A stretch of 64,000 nt of DNA from Chloroflexi bacterium RBG_13_51_36 (GCA_001796515.1 MGMS01000010.1:18209-82208); one strand, 5' to 3'; positions 39,654 to 60,711 are shown, counted from the stretch's first letter. Numbers and translations are program-made. The notes: generated from the sequence alone by a model not told the origin.

Positions 39654-40205
39654 TTGTTATCTCGAAATCGGGAGTTTAGGTTGAGCGTACTTGCAAGAGT
39701 TGTCAAGGCGGCTTGGGCAGAACTGAACAAGCCCAAAACATATGTCACAGGCGATGAATTCGAGCACTACGTCCGTGGATACTTGTTCACCAAGGAAGGA
39801 TATGACCTAGTGCATCAAACCCATGATTATGAAACCAACAGAGATGACTTCGTTGAAACCTCGAAGGAGCCGGACTTCAGATTCAGGTCAAGAAGAAGTG
39901 GCCGAGAATTTCTAGTCGAGGCGAAATACAGATCACGGCTTTATCAGGAGGCTGTCGAATGGTGCAAACCATATCAGCTAAATAGATACATGGCGATCGA
40001 TAAGGATATGCCGGTGCTTGTTGCCATCGGCTCAGGCGGACGTCCAAATTCGCCTGAGCATGTCTACATAGTGCCGGTAAGGCATATTAAGTACAGAAGG
40101 CTGTTTCCATCTTCCCTAAGGCATTACGAAGTGCCGACCAACCGATGTGTGAACGCAGACAGGATTTTATTGTCACTGCAAGGCTTGGGTGGGGAATCCC
40201 GCTGA
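39654..40205 (+). CDS. PD-(D/E)xK / NERD-like nuclease-fold protein
   Basis: DFRFRSRRSGREFLVEAKYRS fits the D...E-x-K motif pattern. 183 aa. The stop codon directly abuts repeat copy 1. Confidence 0.45.
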   Translation: MLSRNREFRLSVLARVVKAAWAELNKPKTYVTGDEFEHYVRGYLFTKEGYDLVHQTHDYETNRDDFVETSKEPDFRFRSRRSGREFLVEAKYRSRLYQEAVEWCKPYQLNRYMAIDKDMPVLVAIGSGGRPNSPEHVYIVPVRHIKYRRLFPSSLRHYEVPTNRCVNADRILLSLQGLGGESR

Positions 40206-40266
40206 ATTCCAGGGACGCCATACCAATCAGGCCTGCCACAAATCCGGTATTATGTCCCCAAAATAC
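40204..40266 (+). repeat. 63-bp TIR element, copy 1
   Basis: GAATTCCAGGGACGCCATACCAATCAGGCCTGCCACAAATCCGGTATTATGTCCCCAAAATAC. Confidence 0.85.
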
Positions 40267-40278
40267 TACTCGAAGTAA

Positions 40279-40370
40279 TGCTTCATTCACTCATTTTGGG
40301 GTGACTCTTCAGGTTTGCGATTATTTGAACAACAAATAGTCCGAGCATGATGAGCCCCCTCTCTAGTCCC
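40279..40370 (-). pseudogene. 3-prime remnant of a paralog of the membrane-protein gene at 42221-42661
   Basis: The reverse strand translates to ...LIMLGLFVVQIIANLKSHPKMSE*, nearly identical to the C-terminus of the 146 aa protein (LIMLGLFIVQIIANLKSHPKMSG). There is no upstream ORF body. Confidence 0.55.
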
Positions 40371-40445
40371 TGGTCTCCAGTCTCTAGTCCCTAGTCTCCA
40401 GTCTCTAGTCTCTAGTCTCTAGTCCCCAGCCCCTAGCCTCCGTTG
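40370..40445. repeat. CT-rich CTCTAGTCC/CTAGTCTC tract
   Basis: CTCTAGTCCCTGGTCTCCAGTCTCTAGTCCCTAGTCTCC... Confidence 0.7.
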
Positions 40446-40471
40446 ACAGTGTTCGTCGGCGTGGACTACAA

Positions 40472-57657: not shown

Positions 57658-57750
57658 TCAGCAAGTCCAGGTCATCCGTGTCGGAGAGTTGACAGCACCA
57701 GGTCGCCCATCTAAAGTGTAAGCTGGCGAGTTGAGGTACGCGCACCAAAG

Positions 57751-58782
57751 GTGCGCTCGGTGTCCATGGAACCAGGATATGTTGCGCTATACCAGTCCGG
57801 CGAATTGGGCCGTCGTGCACAGGCGCTTGAGGCTCGATTGGCCTCCTGCGATATCTGCCCCCGGGAGTGTCGGGTCAATAGACTGGAGGACGAGGTGGGT
57901 TATTGCCATTCCGGGCGGCTCCCCATAGTGTCAGCATTCTGCGCTCACCATGGTGAGGAACCCGCCATTTCGGGGACCGGCGGGTCAGGGACGGTCTTTT
58001 TCGGCAACTGCAATATGAGATGCGTCTATTGTCAGAACCACCAGATAAGCCAGAACTGGAAGGAACAGAAGTCGAAGGAAATGGACTGCCGCACTCTGGC
58101 GGAGAAGATGCTCTATCTTCAGGATGAATTGGGCTGCCATAATATCAATTTCGTTTCGCCATCCCATTTTGTGCCTCAGCTCGTTCGGGCAGTTTTGGAG
58201 GCGGTGCCCAGGGGGTTGAAAGTGCCGCTTGTCTATAACAGCAGTGGCTATGATTCTGTCGCCTCTCTGAAAGCGCTGGACGGCGTCATAAGTATCTACC
58301 TGCCCGATTTGAGATATGCCTCGGACAGGTGGGCCAAAAAGTTCTCGCATGCCCCGGACTATGTAGCACGGGCCCGCCAGGCCATTAAGGAGATGTATCG
58401 ACAGGTTGGAGACCTGGCGGTAGATGAATCCGGCGTGGCACAGAAAGGACTGATAGTGCGCCACCTTATTCTCCCCAACGGTCTGGCCGGCAGCGAGGAA
58501 TCACTAATCTGGCTGGCCCGGGAGCTTTCCCCCACGGTGACGGTCAGCATAATGTCTCAGTACATGCCGATGCACCGGGCGCCGCGAATACCATTGATTT
58601 CGAGGAAGATCACCATTGAAGAGCATGAGGCAGTCCTCCGGTTGCTTACTGACCTGGGAATAGAGAACGGTTGGGTGCAGGAAATGGAGGCAGCGGAAGA
58701 GTATCTCCCTGATTTCGAACGACAAGGTCACCCTTTTTGTCCTAAGAATTCACAGGATAACATGCAAGTAGGCTTACAGTGA
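57751..58782 (+). CDS. PflX-family radical SAM protein (putative glycyl-radical activating enzyme-like)
   Basis: GELGRRAQALEARLASCDICPRECRVNR...FFGNCNMRCVYCQNHQIS: Cx3Cx2C cluster plus the N-terminal CxxCPRxC typical of PflX-like proteins. Confidence 0.75.
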   Translation: MRSVSMEPGYVALYQSGELGRRAQALEARLASCDICPRECRVNRLEDEVGYCHSGRLPIVSAFCAHHGEEPAISGTGGSGTVFFGNCNMRCVYCQNHQISQNWKEQKSKEMDCRTLAEKMLYLQDELGCHNINFVSPSHFVPQLVRAVLEAVPRGLKVPLVYNSSGYDSVASLKALDGVISIYLPDLRYASDRWAKKFSHAPDYVARARQAIKEMYRQVGDLAVDESGVAQKGLIVRHLILPNGLAGSEESLIWLARELSPTVTVSIMSQYMPMHRAPRIPLISRKITIEEHEAVLRLLTDLGIENGWVQEMEAAEEYLPDFERQGHPFCPKNSQDNMQVGLQ

Positions 58783-59029
58783 ATCAGGAATGACGTGCCC
58801 GGAACAGTGATGCCGTGAGGCATTTCTCCACCGCTTTCGTATGCTTTTCGCAAACCAGTACAAGGAAGAATCCTTCAACACATCCGAATTTGCGTTTACC
58901 AGGTGGAATGGCGTGGGCAGGCGGCACAACACCCGGAATCGTTCAATGGAACGACAACCGGGCGCAAGAGTTGGTGCATGGGAACAGGAACCAGGGGAAA
59001 ACCTGCGGAGACGTTAGGTCCCATCGCTA

Positions 59030-60487
59030 TCAACCAGGCCCATACGGGTCGGTGGGCAAAGGTTCCGGGATGGGCTCGGTCACCGGGGCGTTTTCCCAGA
59101 CGCCGCTGCGTTTCTGTAGGCGGTATTCGCGGTAAATCCAGAGGGCGGCGACGATGGCGCCACCGACGTCTGAGATCGGAAGAGCAAGCCAGACACCGTT
59201 CAGCCCCATGAAGCGCGGCAGAATGAGCACGGCAGGCAGGAGAAGGGCCAGCTGGCGCACTAGGGACAAACAAATGGCTGTCCACCCCTTGGATAGTCCC
59301 TGGAAGGTGATGATGAACATGATGGCGGGGCCAATCAGAATTAGGGCTGCGATGAAGATGCGCATCCCTGGCACGGCGATGGCCAGCAACTCCGGGCTCT
59401 TGTTGAAGATGCCAATTACCTGTGGAGCGAAAATCTCCAGCAACACAGTGACAACGGCCAATACCACCACAGAAATGAGTGTGCCGTGTCTGACTGCCGC
59501 CCATAAGCGCCCCCAGAGCCGTGCCCCAAAACAGAAGCCAACAATGGGTAGAAGAGCATGGGCCAGGCCGATAATCGGGATGAAGGCCAGGTCGGCAATA
59601 CGGAATGCGATTCCCACGGCTGCCAGTGCTACCGAGCCAAAGCCTGCCATAACTTGATTGAAGCCTAGGAATACGACAGCTTCCGTAAGATCCATCAGTG
59701 ACTCGGGCAACCCTACTCGATAGATCTGCTTTATGATGGACAGGTCGAGCTTAAGGTGATGCAGCTTCAAACGGTAAACAGATTTGCTCCCCAGCAGATA
59801 ATAGCAGCCAATAGCGGCGGCGAGTCCACCCGATATAGTGGTGGCCAGGGCAGCCCCACCAATGCCCATCTCCGGGAAGGGCCCCCAGCCGAAGATCAAG
59901 AACGGGTCGAGGACAGCATTGACCACAGCACCGATAACGTAGAAGATCATTGGCTTGACGGTTTCCCCGGCGGCATGGAAAACGTTGCGGGCTATCACCC
60001 GGAAGAGAATGAATGGTATTCCCCAGCCGAAGTAGATCAGGTACTCCGCCGTTGGGCCTATCACATCAGGGGGCGCCCCGAGCAGAGCGGCCAGCGGCCT
60101 GGCAAAGAAAACACTGGGAATGATGAAGATAATCCCGAAAATGGCGGTCAAAGGGAAAACCTGACCAGCTACGCGGTTGGTAGCTTCAATATTTCTTTCA
60201 CCGAAGCGCCGCGATGCCAGTGCATTGGCGCCAATACCAGAACCAAGGCCTATAGCAAATATCACGATATAAAAGGGAAACGTTATGGTTATGGCGGCAA
60301 TTGCCTCATAGCTGACTCGACCCAGCCAGAAGGTATCAGCCAGGATGTAGAGGGACATGGCAAGCATTGATACCATGCTGGGCGTGCCCAGGCGCAGGAA
60401 CAGCTTGCTCAGCCGTTCCGTACCAAGACGTGCGGTGGTCTCCTGAAGGTCGCCGAATTCATCTGTTTTCATTGTTCTTGAAGCCAA
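59030..60487 (-). CDS. MATE family efflux transporter
   Basis: 485 aa, 12 TM segments, two-fold internal symmetry typical of MATE/NorM. Confidence 0.85.
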   Translation of the reverse strand: MASRTMKTDEFGDLQETTARLGTERLSKLFLRLGTPSMVSMLAMSLYILADTFWLGRVSYEAIAAITITFPFYIVIFAIGLGSGIGANALASRRFGERNIEATNRVAGQVFPLTAIFGIIFIIPSVFFARPLAALLGAPPDVIGPTAEYLIYFGWGIPFILFRVIARNVFHAAGETVKPMIFYVIGAVVNAVLDPFLIFGWGPFPEMGIGGAALATTISGGLAAAIGCYYLLGSKSVYRLKLHHLKLDLSIIKQIYRVGLPESLMDLTEAVVFLGFNQVMAGFGSVALAAVGIAFRIADLAFIPIIGLAHALLPIVGFCFGARLWGRLWAAVRHGTLISVVVLAVVTVLLEIFAPQVIGIFNKSPELLAIAVPGMRIFIAALILIGPAIMFIITFQGLSKGWTAICLSLVRQLALLLPAVLILPRFMGLNGVWLALPISDVGGAIVAALWIYREYRLQKRSGVWENAPVTEPIPEPLPTDPYGPG

Positions 60488-60651
60488 CCATAGCTGTGCA
60501 GGCCGTCACTATTCGACACAAGGAACTGATACGTTCGAAGGCCGTGCAAAAACACGGGCGCTTTTCAGCGCCCTGCTGTGTTCGGTTATTTTACTCTTGC
60601 TCTTGGGGGCACGCAAGTCTCCCACCGTTCGTATTTGTGTCTACTCAATTT

Positions 60652-60711
60652 GCCCACCCACGCCATACCAATCGGGCTTGCCACAAATCAGGCATCACCT
60701 CCCCCGAATTC
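60652..60711 (+). repeat. 63-bp TIR element, copy 13
   Basis: CCCACCCACGCCATACCAATCGGGCTTGCCACAAATCAGGCATCACCTCCCCCGAATTC. The 3-prime end CCCCCGAATTC mirrors the 5-prime GAATTCC of the other copies. Confidence 0.75.

Follow-up and report, generated by a model that had tools for sequence, protein, structure and literature searches.

Co-oriented 63-nt palindromic elements as candidate boundary sites of an integron-like chromosomal cassette array in uncultured Dehalococcoidia

REP sequences are palindromes of 20-40 nt, one end of which carries a conserved GTAG or CGTC tag; they are dispersed genome-wide, in either orientation and often as inverted doublets, and the RAYT gene is flanked by REPs. 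Members of the IS200/IS605 family depend on a conserved target of four or five nucleotides directly at the left end, and on guide sequences by small subterminal hairpins. MITEs, which are derivatives of DDE transposons, have terminal inverted repeats (TIRs) and target-site duplications, and insert in either orientation. In Xer-dependent modules (pdif of Acinetobacter plasmids; IMEX at dif), the recombinase is encoded elsewhere (host XerC/D) and arrays can grow by repeated integration at a single site; dif-like sites span 28 bp (11-6-11) and pdif sites alternate in orientation. Integron arrays are headed by intI, attI and Pc, and their cassettes are mostly promoterless and co-oriented with the attC site. 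An attC site is an imperfect palindrome that folds on itself in single-stranded form; its structure is conserved while its sequence and length vary, and extrahelical (bulged) bases mark the recombinogenic bottom strand; arrays of such sites without a nearby integrase are known as CALINs. The attC site carries the 7-bp cores RYYYAAC (R'') and GTTRRRY (R') at its ends, and IntI cuts between G and TT (PMC8876359).

An array of imperfect palindromes of about 63 nt was identified in a 64-kb stretch of DNA from Chloroflexi bacterium RBG_13_51_36 (the window). The chance that these elements are recombination sites at the cassette boundaries of an integron-like chromosomal array in one group of uncultured Dehalococcoidia, served by an unlinked putative enzyme and using a site different from that of integrons, is judged to be about even. 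The window contains 11 full and three partial copies at 39,400-60,713, all on the plus strand and separating about 12 gene units, and none elsewhere. The copies were located with an nhmmer profile built from them, which gave 14 matches at E<0.01 (39,401-60,713, all plus); the next-best matches in the window had E>=0.19. The purine/pyrimidine pattern of the element matched 10 copies vs 0 in 100 shuffles. An earlier, sequence-only reading of this DNA had reported 13 same-strand copies at 40-61 kb. The strand assignment is real for every profile match, whereas the count combined 10 full-length copies, beginning at the starts given below for copies 2 to 11, with three partial ones (5' 30 nt at 46703, 5' 40 nt at 48005 and a 3' fragment at about 51849-51911) and overlooked one further full copy. 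The overlooked copy (copy 1, 39400-39463, E=4e-14) shows that the array begins just before 40 kb.

The first bases of copy 2 (40204-40267, E=1.6e-20) complete the TGA stop of the ORF at 39654-40205, and copy 8 (53529-53590, E=2.3e-14) overlaps the TGA stop of the ORF at 52889-53530. The claim that copies start no more than a few bases from a stop codon applies to some copies such as these but not to others, which follow a stop at a distance of 40-100 nt or adjoin the 5' end of a minus-strand gene; copy 4 (45366-45428, E=4e-18) lies 81 nt past the stop of a sigma-70 gene. Copies 3 (42709-42771, E=1.3e-16), 5 (47689-47752, E=4.5e-17) and 7 (50553-50616, E=2.7e-18) are full length, as is copy 6 (49752-49813, E=4e-11), which has a 1-nt deletion in the loop. 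The start is degenerate over about 9 nt in copy 9 (54311-54373, E=1.5e-14) and about 11 nt in copy 11, the last one (60649-60713, E=1.4e-13). Copy 10 (57595-57656, E=2.4e-15) has the variant AAACTAGGGAT, which also occurs in L081, in a relic that lies upstream of this radical-SAM gene's counterpart there. The truncated copy at 46703-46732 (E=8e-4) consists of the 5' half alone and ends at column 30, a truncation also found in L063, and that at 48005-48044 (E=2.7e-6) covers columns 1-40, as in L001 and L060. The degenerate copy at 51849-51911 (E=0.006) is recognisable only in its 3' part (51876-51899). Two doubtful plus-strand relics (52771-52804, E=1.5; 58769-58804, E=2.1) were left out of the copy count. 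The window copies diverge by about 27% from each other and by about 16% from the clade consensus, and none lies within 3 mismatches of the consensus quoted previously.

The element is composed of two similar, consistently different 21-nt arms around an asymmetric 21-nt centre. The consensus of 241 copies begins GAATTCC and finishes GAATAC, the length is exactly 63 nt in 189 of these copies, and conservation per position is 85-95% across 34 MAGs. The ends are sharp and the flanks unconserved (<=0.14 bits at flank positions). Because the arms are of equal length and differ only by five mismatches conserved across copies, the stem has no bulges. The palindromy described in the sequence-only reading was retained, but the inverted repeats are longer than the approximately 11 bp given there and form a stem of 21 positions, made up of three helices (6+6+5 bp). 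Likewise, an internal direct repeat exists, but the actual 9-nt repeat is CCAATCAGG / CAAATCAGG, 16 nt apart in the conserved central loop, and not the one quoted. The arms can pair as a hairpin, predicted on both strands, with free energies of -16.7 kcal/mol (z = -3.5) for RNA of the top strand and -25.5 kcal/mol (z = -4.3) for the more stable bottom strand. The stem showed no compensatory covariation (16 observed vs 12.9 expected), and its folding is therefore a prediction only. Searches of plasmids, viral contigs and the literature gave no match to the element, and Rfam, which has no attC family, gave none at gathering thresholds and one irrelevant match at E<=1, in agreement with the previous remark that no described family has this signature.

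The family comprises 622 copies, spread over 34 related Dehalococcoidia MAGs and 120 metagenome contigs. Orientation is uniform in 153 of 155 multi-copy loci, which upholds the distinction drawn earlier from REP elements that flip; the sole contig of the genome set with both orientations is a 100% palindromic assembly artefact. The orientation of the element was also correctly described as independent of gene strand, since cassette families split into 10 plus and 11 minus relative to it. Arrays occupy fixed chromosomal positions and the copies are densely clustered in them, with a median spacing of 1,052 nt and no copy in 40 kb of adjacent core genome. Divergence among elements is 0.147 within a locus vs 0.156 between loci, with a single shared consensus, a pattern not expected from local concerted evolution.

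Rearrangements break at the elements: units of one to three genes, bounded by co-oriented elements, are gained, lost and reordered there without inversion. In comparisons based on crude ORF calls, gene adjacency between MAGs was kept in 16 of 301 cases across an element (5.3%) vs 134 of 313 without one (42.8%; Fisher p=9e-30 for pairs that are not phylogenetically independent). Family orientation was constant in 101 of the 109 members of 21 recurrent in-array families while their order was shuffled; for example, the order 9-,3+,4+,5+ in L081 corresponds to 5+,36+,4+,3+,9- in L008. Six whole-unit insertion/deletion events are bounded by elements, including a 1.6-kb insert of two cassettes in L059 relative to L005. 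The suggestion that the elements behave as cassette boundaries is thereby supported: blocks move and polarity is kept, as in a generic array of cassettes formed by site-specific recombination. Cassette identity between MAGs (about 86%) is close to flank identity (about 87%) and thus gives no sign of recent lateral transfer; the cassette system may be a relic.

An integron-like array would account for this behaviour as follows. The gene of a sequence-specific recombinase would lie elsewhere in the genome, and the enzyme would bind the arms and exchange strands in or near the centre, at about columns 22-43, acting either on double-stranded DNA (lox- or dif-like) or on a folded single strand (attC-like or HUH-like). 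Two neighbouring co-oriented sites would give an excised circle with one rebuilt element, which could re-enter at any other element. Such a cycle would automatically generate co-orientation, one element per boundary and the fixed polarity of each cassette. Variation in the element is partly linked to the neighbouring units. Similarity in columns 37-63 is higher for pairs that have only the downstream unit in common (Fisher p=3e-7), and the left-right asymmetry differs among pair classes (permutation p=0.0005), the pairs in both tests not being phylogenetically independent. Truncated copies that arose independently have their breaks at columns 22-25 in four 3' halves and at columns 29-31 in three of the five 5' halves, so that linkage and truncations together point to columns ~22-43. 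Six empty/filled comparisons were mutually inconsistent (one matched the right junction element, one mostly the left, one switched from left to right and three were mosaics), and no consistent crossover point emerged from them. Approximate single-sequence queries of 1.28 Mb of array-bearing DNA found one tyrosine-recombinase-like ORF, 4 kb from a lone element, and no serine recombinase, IS200-type TnpA or RAYT-like ORF. No recombinase or IntI was found at about 35 visible array ends.

The variable or mosaic exchange points could equally have come from homologous recombination, gene conversion or site-specific exchange, and it is conceivable, though rather unlikely, that the element has another primary role, for example as a binding site of a nucleoid or insulator protein or as a transcript-end hairpin. 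Shuffling would then be a by-product of gene conversion and RecA-dependent homologous recombination among direct repeats of 63 nt. Units excised between neighbouring repeats could re-enter in a Campbell-type event, with no dedicated recombinase. Identical runs of at least 25 nt in many copies would suffice for low-frequency homologous recombination, cassettes diverge at the core-genome rate and no array has a linked recombinase. However, homologous recombination alone does not account for one co-oriented copy at nearly every unit boundary and leaves the confinement of copies to arrays unexplained. The clustering of truncations at columns 22-31, the asymmetric linkage in which the right arm travels with the downstream unit and the lack of concerted evolution within loci also speak against it, and no alternative function is supported for an element with neither a T-tract terminator nor an internal promoter. 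It is improbable that the element is a selfish hairpin of the REP/RAYT or IS200/IS605 (PATE) kind, acting as a single strand and mobilised by an HUH tyrosine transposase whose gene lies elsewhere. Its strand-specific insertion (e.g., into the lagging-strand template) would make co-orientation a record of replication direction and not of cassette capture. This would suit the hairpin with conserved mismatches and strands of different folding stability, the independence from gene strand, the sign changes of both GC skew and gene strand near the window array and the shared orientation of two arrays that lie 30 kb from each other on a 596-kb contig. REPs are likewise short, clade-specific intergenic palindromes in many copies that possibly form single-strand hairpins, and IS200/IS605 ends and PATEs share co-oriented imperfect hairpins flanking cargo, strictly strand-specific chemistry and the absence of target-site duplications. 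The 63-nt element, in contrast, lacks a GTAG or CGTC tag, and its co-oriented arrays delimit shuffled gene units, which REPs do not. No conserved 4-5-nt target or guide motif adjoins it on either side, and its 21-position stem and 21-nt loop are far larger than REP or IS200-type hairpins. Copies are dense in arrays and absent from the adjacent 40 kb, gene order itself changes at elements, and presence or absence of an element at the same gene pair reflects replacement, not a clean 63-nt insertion; the failure to find TnpA in 1.28 Mb is a weak test. The earlier option of a site-specific insertion element, taken as a self-inserting MITE, is not supported by this replacement pattern either. MITEs resemble the element in small size, TIRs and intergenic location, but here target-site duplications of 2-8 nt were not clearly above chance, flanks are unconserved, co-orientation is near-absolute and copies are confined to arrays.

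The predicted stable hairpin, and the frequent position of copies 1-100 nt past a stop codon, might also suggest a role at the RNA level (for instance as a small RNA gene, a processing site, or a hairpin that terminates transcripts or stabilises their 3' ends), and a small structured RNA or terminator had been among the options of the sequence-only reading. This is very improbable: orientation ignores the strand of neighbouring genes, the stem lacks covariation, no element has a T-tract or is among the terminator-like sites called in the window, Rfam offers no relevant family, and shuffling and clustering would be left unexplained. The comparison with attC-bounded cassettes fared better as a description of behaviour than of identity. 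Common to these arrays and to attC arrays or CALINs are imperfect palindromes of about 60 nt, one per cassette and all co-oriented; cassettes of about 1 kb; gain, loss and reordering of cassettes without inversion; cargo rich in toxin-antitoxin modules, GNATs, DUFs and other accessory genes; and fixed chromosomal positions. Integrons have been reported in Chloroflexi (PMC4889954), and a nearby intI is commonly missing from CALINs. Ordinary integron attC sites, in a CALIN or in the distal part of a sedentary chromosomal integron with intI outside the fetched DNA, are nevertheless close to refuted, with scarcely any probability left to them. Neither an R'-like GTTRRRY core nor RYYYAAC is present, the 241-copy consensus lacks any GTT or AAC triplet and none is conserved in the flanks; the arms are of equal length and leave no base extrahelical; both the sequence and its length are fixed; a direct repeat lies in the conserved loop; and the linkage data locate the exchange closer to the middle of the site than to its 3' end. 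No IntI was found at the approximately 35 array ends, and only one tyrosine-recombinase-like ORF was found in 1.28 Mb. Canonical attC was accordingly rejected. In contrast to integron cassettes, those described here lie on either strand and apparently carry their own promoters, with promoter-like sites 3' of several window elements. The Xer-dependent modules share with the arrays the bounding of modules by short recombination sites, but no dif-like core is evident in the element, apart from a 7-nt coincidence (ATTATGT) judged by eye.

The cargo across arrays includes HEPN-MNT, MazF, HicB, Fic, toxin-antitoxin pairs, GNAT, hydrolases and DUFs, and is typical of chromosomal integron arrays. In the window, the units encode a YwiC-like membrane protein (42221-42661, minus; family c7, all of whose members in other MAGs are minus with respect to the element), a sigma-70 family factor (43813-45285, plus; family c15, also present in the arrays of L011, L023, L047 and L052), a PLP-dependent enzyme (45574-46692, plus; c26), an alpha/beta hydrolase (46726-47634, minus), a flavodoxin and an LCAT/PGAP1-like lipase (48099-49711, plus; c19 and c24) and a DUF3237 protein (49992-50456, plus). 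These are followed by an NAD(P)-binding NmrA-like protein (52889-53530, plus; c23), a GNAT acetyltransferase (53606-54337, minus), a second alpha/beta hydrolase (minus) with a 5'-nucleotidase/metallophosphatase (plus, c31) at 54378-57637, a radical SAM protein (57751-58782, plus; c4) and a MatE efflux protein (59030-60487, minus; c34). A promoter-like site (57689-57717) lies directly 3' of copy 10, before the radical SAM gene. The 5' flank of the array (35678-39070) contains restriction-modification genes, namely a PLD-type nuclease and two N6/N4 DNA methylases, and R-M or other defence genes recur on this side of arrays in other MAGs.

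The 63-nt element very probably bounds gene units that are gained, lost and reordered with their polarity kept, within co-oriented arrays of a single Dehalococcoidia clade. ORFs were clustered across the element-bearing loci (MAG stretches and metagenome contigs, L-numbers), and each locus was drawn as a string of ORF families and elements, with the sign of a family giving its strand relative to the element. Several units recur between MAGs in different order and with a fixed orientation to the element ('10- 11-', '17- 25-', '20- 1-', '1+ 14+', 5+, 4+, 3+, 9- and 7-). For example, L081 reads 9-,3+,4+,5+, whereas L008 reads 5+,36+,4+,3+,9-; the order is reversed and the polarity of each gene is kept, a change that inversion cannot produce. 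The family of the downstream neighbour was conserved between MAGs in 134 of 313 cases without an intervening element and in 16 of 301 cases with one (Fisher p=9e-30, for pair statistics that are not phylogenetically independent). Family orientation was kept by 101 of the 109 members of 21 families with at least four in-array members, and the in-array families divide into 10 plus and 11 minus relative to the element. Seven junction pairs retain both neighbours, whereas 287 have one in common. Six comparisons of empty and filled sites revealed whole units gained or lost exactly at elements, including an extra 1,619 bp comprising two cassettes in L059 versus L005, which are otherwise 93% identical.

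Repeat finding in the window returned a 62-nt family of 10 copies and two half-length families. A profile derived from the copies gave 14 matches with E<0.01, all on the plus strand between 39,401 and 60,713, and all scores in the rest of the 64-kb window were E>=0.19. A purine/pyrimidine pattern matched 10 copies in the window and none in 100 shuffles. The sequence-only reading had counted 13 copies on one strand; the strand assignment holds, and 10 full-length and three partial copies were recovered, but a full copy at 39,400-39,463 had been overlooked. The consensus that it quoted is fair overall, although no window copy lies within three mismatches of it. The segments 52771-52804 and 58769-58804 are candidate relics, too weak to be counted as copies. 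Window copies are unusually degenerate: they differ by approximately 27% among themselves and by approximately 16% from the consensus of the clade. They are spaced about 0.3-3.3 kb apart, the median across the clade being 1.05 kb.

The 241 near-full copies give the consensus GAATTCCAGGGACACCATACCAATCAGGCCT[A/G]CTACAAATCAGGTATTATGTCCCCAGAATAC. The element has sharp ends, with about 1.0-1.8 bits per position inside versus at most 0.14 bits in the flanks, and is exactly 63 nt long in 189 of these copies. The two arms (columns 1-21 and 43-63, a column being a position in the element) comprise three helices of 6, 6 and 5 bp split by two 2x2 mismatches, with an A.A opposition between columns 2 and 62. 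Five differences between the arms are kept across copies (2/62, 7/57, 8/56, 15/49 and 16/48). Three of them are C.A or A.C on the top strand and G.T wobbles on the bottom strand, which therefore folds better in prediction, both as DNA (-9.5 versus -7.8 kcal/mol) and as RNA (-25.5 versus -16.7 kcal/mol). The folding z-scores range from -3 to -4.3, and hairpin folding of the element is plausible on these models. No covariation was detected in the hairpin (16 compensated double changes versus 12.9 in shuffles) and non-consensus G.T-type changes are equal on both strands; what is conserved in the two arms is therefore their sequence. The 21-nt centre is asymmetric and contains the direct repeat CCAATCAGG / CAAATCAGG, 16 nt apart, which is the internal AATCAGG repeat noted earlier from the sequence. 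Variants with a 16-nt deletion (L005 1352-1398 in original coordinates, L059 1250-1296 and L081 1811-1856) have lost exactly one AATCAGG repeat unit; those of L005 and L059 are orthologous, with the deletion in common. Column 32, the exact centre, is the sole dimorphic position (A in 125 and G in 95 of 241 copies; window examples at 40235 and 42740), and the two states could represent compatibility classes if exchange occurs at the centre.

A scan of the genome collection with a 42-bit pattern returned 83 stretches, and a profile search of these found 276 copies in 82 loci and 34 MAGs; counted among the loci are the window itself and a metagenome scaffold of 3 kb that matches part of the window identically. 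Nearly all copy-bearing MAGs are labelled Dehalococcoidia, Dehalococcoidales or Chloroflexota. Pattern matches in a Rhizobium and two Desulfobacterales had no profile match and were dismissed as chance. Four 2-7 kb contigs with copies were binned to Stahlbacteria (L025), Fermentibacteria (L033), Desulfobacteraceae (L043) and Bathyarchaeia (L072); these are probably mis-binned Dehalococcoidia contigs rather than cases of cross-phylum transfer. A metagenome scan adds at least 120 contigs and at least 346 copies, and none was found in the viral contigs and plasmids searched. MAG pairs are about 86-87% identical at the nucleotide level, in cassettes as in flanking core genes (the loci compared being 8-kb blocks or short contigs with crudely called ORFs), which indicates one related clade with cassettes about as old as its lineages. 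Element copies diverge by 0.147 within a locus and 0.156 between loci, and a typical copy lies approximately 7% from a single global consensus. The similarity of the two divergence values argues against local concerted evolution, and the pattern would fit a shared sequence-specific constraint on the element. Across seven orthologous junctions, a small sample, the element is 95.9% identical compared with 92-93% in the adjacent 40 nt, which may lend weak support to such a constraint.

The strand bias extends beyond the window. The sequence-only reading would have been contradicted by copies elsewhere in both orientations; instead, orientation is uniform in all 65 multi-copy loci of the genome set and, among the matches listed, in 88 of 90 multi-copy metagenome loci, giving 153 of 155 with two mixed. 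The only genome-set contig with both orientations, JACAEN010000040.1, holds two loci (L017 and L051) that are 100% identical in inverted form over 7.4 kb and roughly symmetric in the 47-kb contig; this duplication in a public MAG is a palindromic assembly artefact. The two mixed metagenome contigs among the matches listed are short and contain one gene between inverted copies, encoding an RDD-family protein (L137 178-1067) or a GMC-type oxidoreductase (L171 95-2865). Rare inversion of a single cassette or an error of assembly may account for them; given these gene identities, they were rejected as sites of a divergent recombinase gene.

Only 32 of the 276 copies overlap a crudely called ORF by more than 40 nt. 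Arrays adjoin core genes: DUF2851-groES-groEL directly borders the 3' side in six loci, drawn from five MAGs, and rpe-argH-MFS precedes the 5' side in the window, L063 and L036. Genes for restriction-modification and other defence functions are repeatedly found 5' of the arrays, with core genes tending to the 3' side. Defence genes are found directly 5' in the window (35678-39070) and in L028, L039, L055, L071-L073, L078-L080 and L083. They encode type I HsdM/HsdS, Eco57I-type and N6/N4 methylases, ResIII, HEPN/RES, a MORC-like ATPase and AAA_21/AAA_15. Assemblies seem to be broken up by the repeats: contig ends hold many of the arrays, which is what breakage at repeats would produce, and a few copies are on short contigs binned to other phyla.

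Sequence comparisons also bear on where units are exchanged. In pairs sharing only the downstream unit, mismatch is about 0.11 in columns 37-63 versus 0.16-0.19 in columns 13-36 (Fisher p=3e-7 at >=85% body identity, the pairs not being phylogenetically independent). Pairs sharing only the upstream unit show no such left-right skew, and the two classes are distinct in their asymmetry (permutation p=0.0005, Mann-Whitney p=0.003). A rare variant, AAACTAGGGAT in window copy 57595 and AAACTGGGAT in a decayed relic of L081, occurs upstream of the same radical-SAM gene with different upstream neighbours. Independent truncated copies break centrally: four 3' halves begin at columns 22-25, and of five 5' halves, which unlike the 3' halves are near the detection limit, three end at columns 29-31. 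One gene pair is found with and without the element; homology restarts exactly at the element's 3' end, and the presence or absence of the element at this pair is a replacement. We conclude from these patterns that exchange occurs inside the element, probably in or near its central region. Crossover mapping of the empty and filled sites at 80-94% identity is inconsistent between events: among six, the element matched the right junction element once, mostly the left once, switched from left to right near columns 36-43 once and was mosaic three times. Two events are available at >=94% identity; neither places the crossover, and one of them looks like private mutations. Homologous recombination or gene conversion may contribute to the exchange. 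The main rival to a dedicated recombination site is that the repeats serve another function and recombine by homology, which we consider unlikely.

The GTTRRRY core is the site cut by IntI in the integron attC (PMC8876359), and canonical integrons have been reported in Chloroflexi (PMC4889954). The sequence-only reading had likened the array to attC-bounded cassettes. The cassette-type shuffling with kept polarity agrees with that idea, but the attC core and a linked IntI are missing: the consensus and flanks contain no GTTRRRY core and no conserved GTT or AAC. The element also has no bulged bases and, in contrast to canonical attC, is fixed in sequence and length and bounds cassettes lying on either strand, so that a canonical attC is highly improbable. 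The cargo resembles that of chromosomal integron arrays, of which toxin-antitoxin modules and small accessory genes are typical. Cassettes in the window encode a sigma-70 factor, a PLP-dependent enzyme, two alpha/beta hydrolases, flavodoxin, an LCAT-like lipase, DUF3237, an NmrA-like protein, GNAT, a 5'-nucleotidase, a radical SAM protein and MatE. Units recurrent across the clade include HEPN-MNT pairs, MazF with an HTH partner, HicB, Fic/DOC, a transglutaminase-like protein with DUF350, methyltransferases, DUF4389, DUF362 and Asp/Glu racemase.

Other identities suggested by the repeat were compared in the same way. An insertion element had been offered as one possibility, but a DDE-type MITE is contradicted by the lack of convincing target-site duplications and by the uniform orientation. 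The contrast with REP elements drawn by the earlier reading stands, as the element has no REP tag, differs in size and occurs in arrays; an IS200-like identity fails likewise, with the wrong size, no tag or target motif and no dispersal. A strand-specific HUH-type hairpin element, which may be considered beside the better predicted folding of the bottom strand, is improbable. The suggestion of a small RNA or terminator is not supported, the element being neither a terminator nor a known RNA; an RNA role, despite the predicted RNA fold, is very unlikely. Promoter-like sites follow several window elements (e.g., 57689-57717 and 60836-60864). A promoter inside the element was rejected, the conserved TATTAT (columns 45-50) having no -35 partner as judged by eye, and promoter prediction called no element promoter-like. 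A dif-like core, also judged by eye, amounts to a 7-nt coincidence. In the literature searched, no published description of the element sequence or of such arrays in Dehalococcoidia was found, in line with the initial impression that no described family fits.

The element is read here as the recombination site of a cassette system that resembles an integron but uses another site and a putative enzyme encoded elsewhere; in our judgement this reading has about an even chance of being correct. More tentatively, the system may be an independently evolved cassette platform, in which a 63-nt site with two arms and an asymmetric core is unrelated to attC. On this second view the enzyme would be an unlinked host factor rather than an adjacent IntI, possibly of the Xer-like tyrosine recombinase, serine recombinase or HUH nuclease type, the last cutting the hairpin loop, and the cassettes would carry their own promoters and be placed on either strand.

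The two ORFs just upstream of the window array encode DNA methylases, and the other window ORFs examined are metabolic, transport or core genes, with no linked recombinase. A set of 138 ORFs from outside the arrays contained none, and neither did the ends of one complete array (L080 to L013). A recurrent flanking family (cluster 8) was rejected as the enzyme because it is the DUF2851 gene beside groES-groEL, all core genes. Approximate single-sequence queries for tyrosine and serine recombinases and for IS200 TnpA gave one match in 6,784 six-frame ORFs from 1.28 Mb, a near-absence from element-bearing DNA that is indicative only. This match, a tyrosine-recombinase-like ORF (L058 5878-7083), is on an 11-kb contig whose solitary element is 4 kb upstream of it, and no link to the arrays is evident.

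To our knowledge, no system other than the integron is well understood among those that keep single-gene cassettes and rearrange them at short hairpin sites. If the reading as an independent platform is true, the arrays would represent a second kind of integron-type architecture, restricted to a clade of uncultured Dehalococcoidia, and integron-like population behaviour at another site would mean that such architecture can evolve more than once. The arrays differ from integrons in having no linked integrase and cassettes that are seemingly self-expressed. In the integron site structure alone is conserved, whereas here the whole sequence is, a property that would ease identification of the cognate enzyme through binding assays or phyletic profiling. 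Tools based on attC, such as IntegronFinder, would probably overlook these arrays.

The window contains further features outside the element family. Its GC skew is negative to about 30 kb and mostly positive beyond about 44 kb, and the first 28 kb has all its large ORFs (genes 1235-28197) on the minus strand; the array may start close to a strand switch related to replication, possibly an origin. A repeat-rich stretch at 28832-35523, described as 11 kb, has core genes on one side and the restriction-modification and array region on the other. It contains four copies of a distinct 64-nt repeat (…GTCATTGCGAGGAGCCCCGA…GGCAATCTC) at 28895, 29133, 32600 and 33656, a 1,056-bp tandem repeat at 31583-33994 with two identical copies and a third at 60% identity over the 300-nt repeat segment, and several other repeat families. 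An alpha/beta hydrolase gene (30507-31403) and an MFS gene (34008-35210) in this stretch belong to families c2 and c49, which are cassette cargo elsewhere. In L063, the array begins soon after the MFS counterpart of window 26956-28197, with one 175-aa ORF between; the repeat-rich stretch of the window therefore looks inserted.

Runs of 7-nt units (CCCTGAC / TCTCTAG type) occur at 21979-22149, 35448-35523, 40360-40443 and 41347-41381, two of them inside the first array cassettes. The run at 40360 starts exactly at the end of a 79-nt direct repeat (40281-40359 / 42219-42297, 92% identical, one inter-element interval). The first copy of this repeat starts 15 nt past element 40204, and the second overlaps the 3' end of a YwiC-like gene that in other MAGs forms a cassette by itself; this arrangement suggests that about 1.9 kb was inserted into or fused with the YwiC-like cassette, with a duplication. 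An 88-nt repeat (47835-47922 / 50805-50892, 82% identical) lies 80-190 nt downstream of elements 47689 and 50553 and could be a shared leader or a segment of an ORF-less cassette. Two tandem 93-nt units at 51364-51549, 82% identical, lie within ORF 51221-51559 and would encode a repeated peptide segment in its product.
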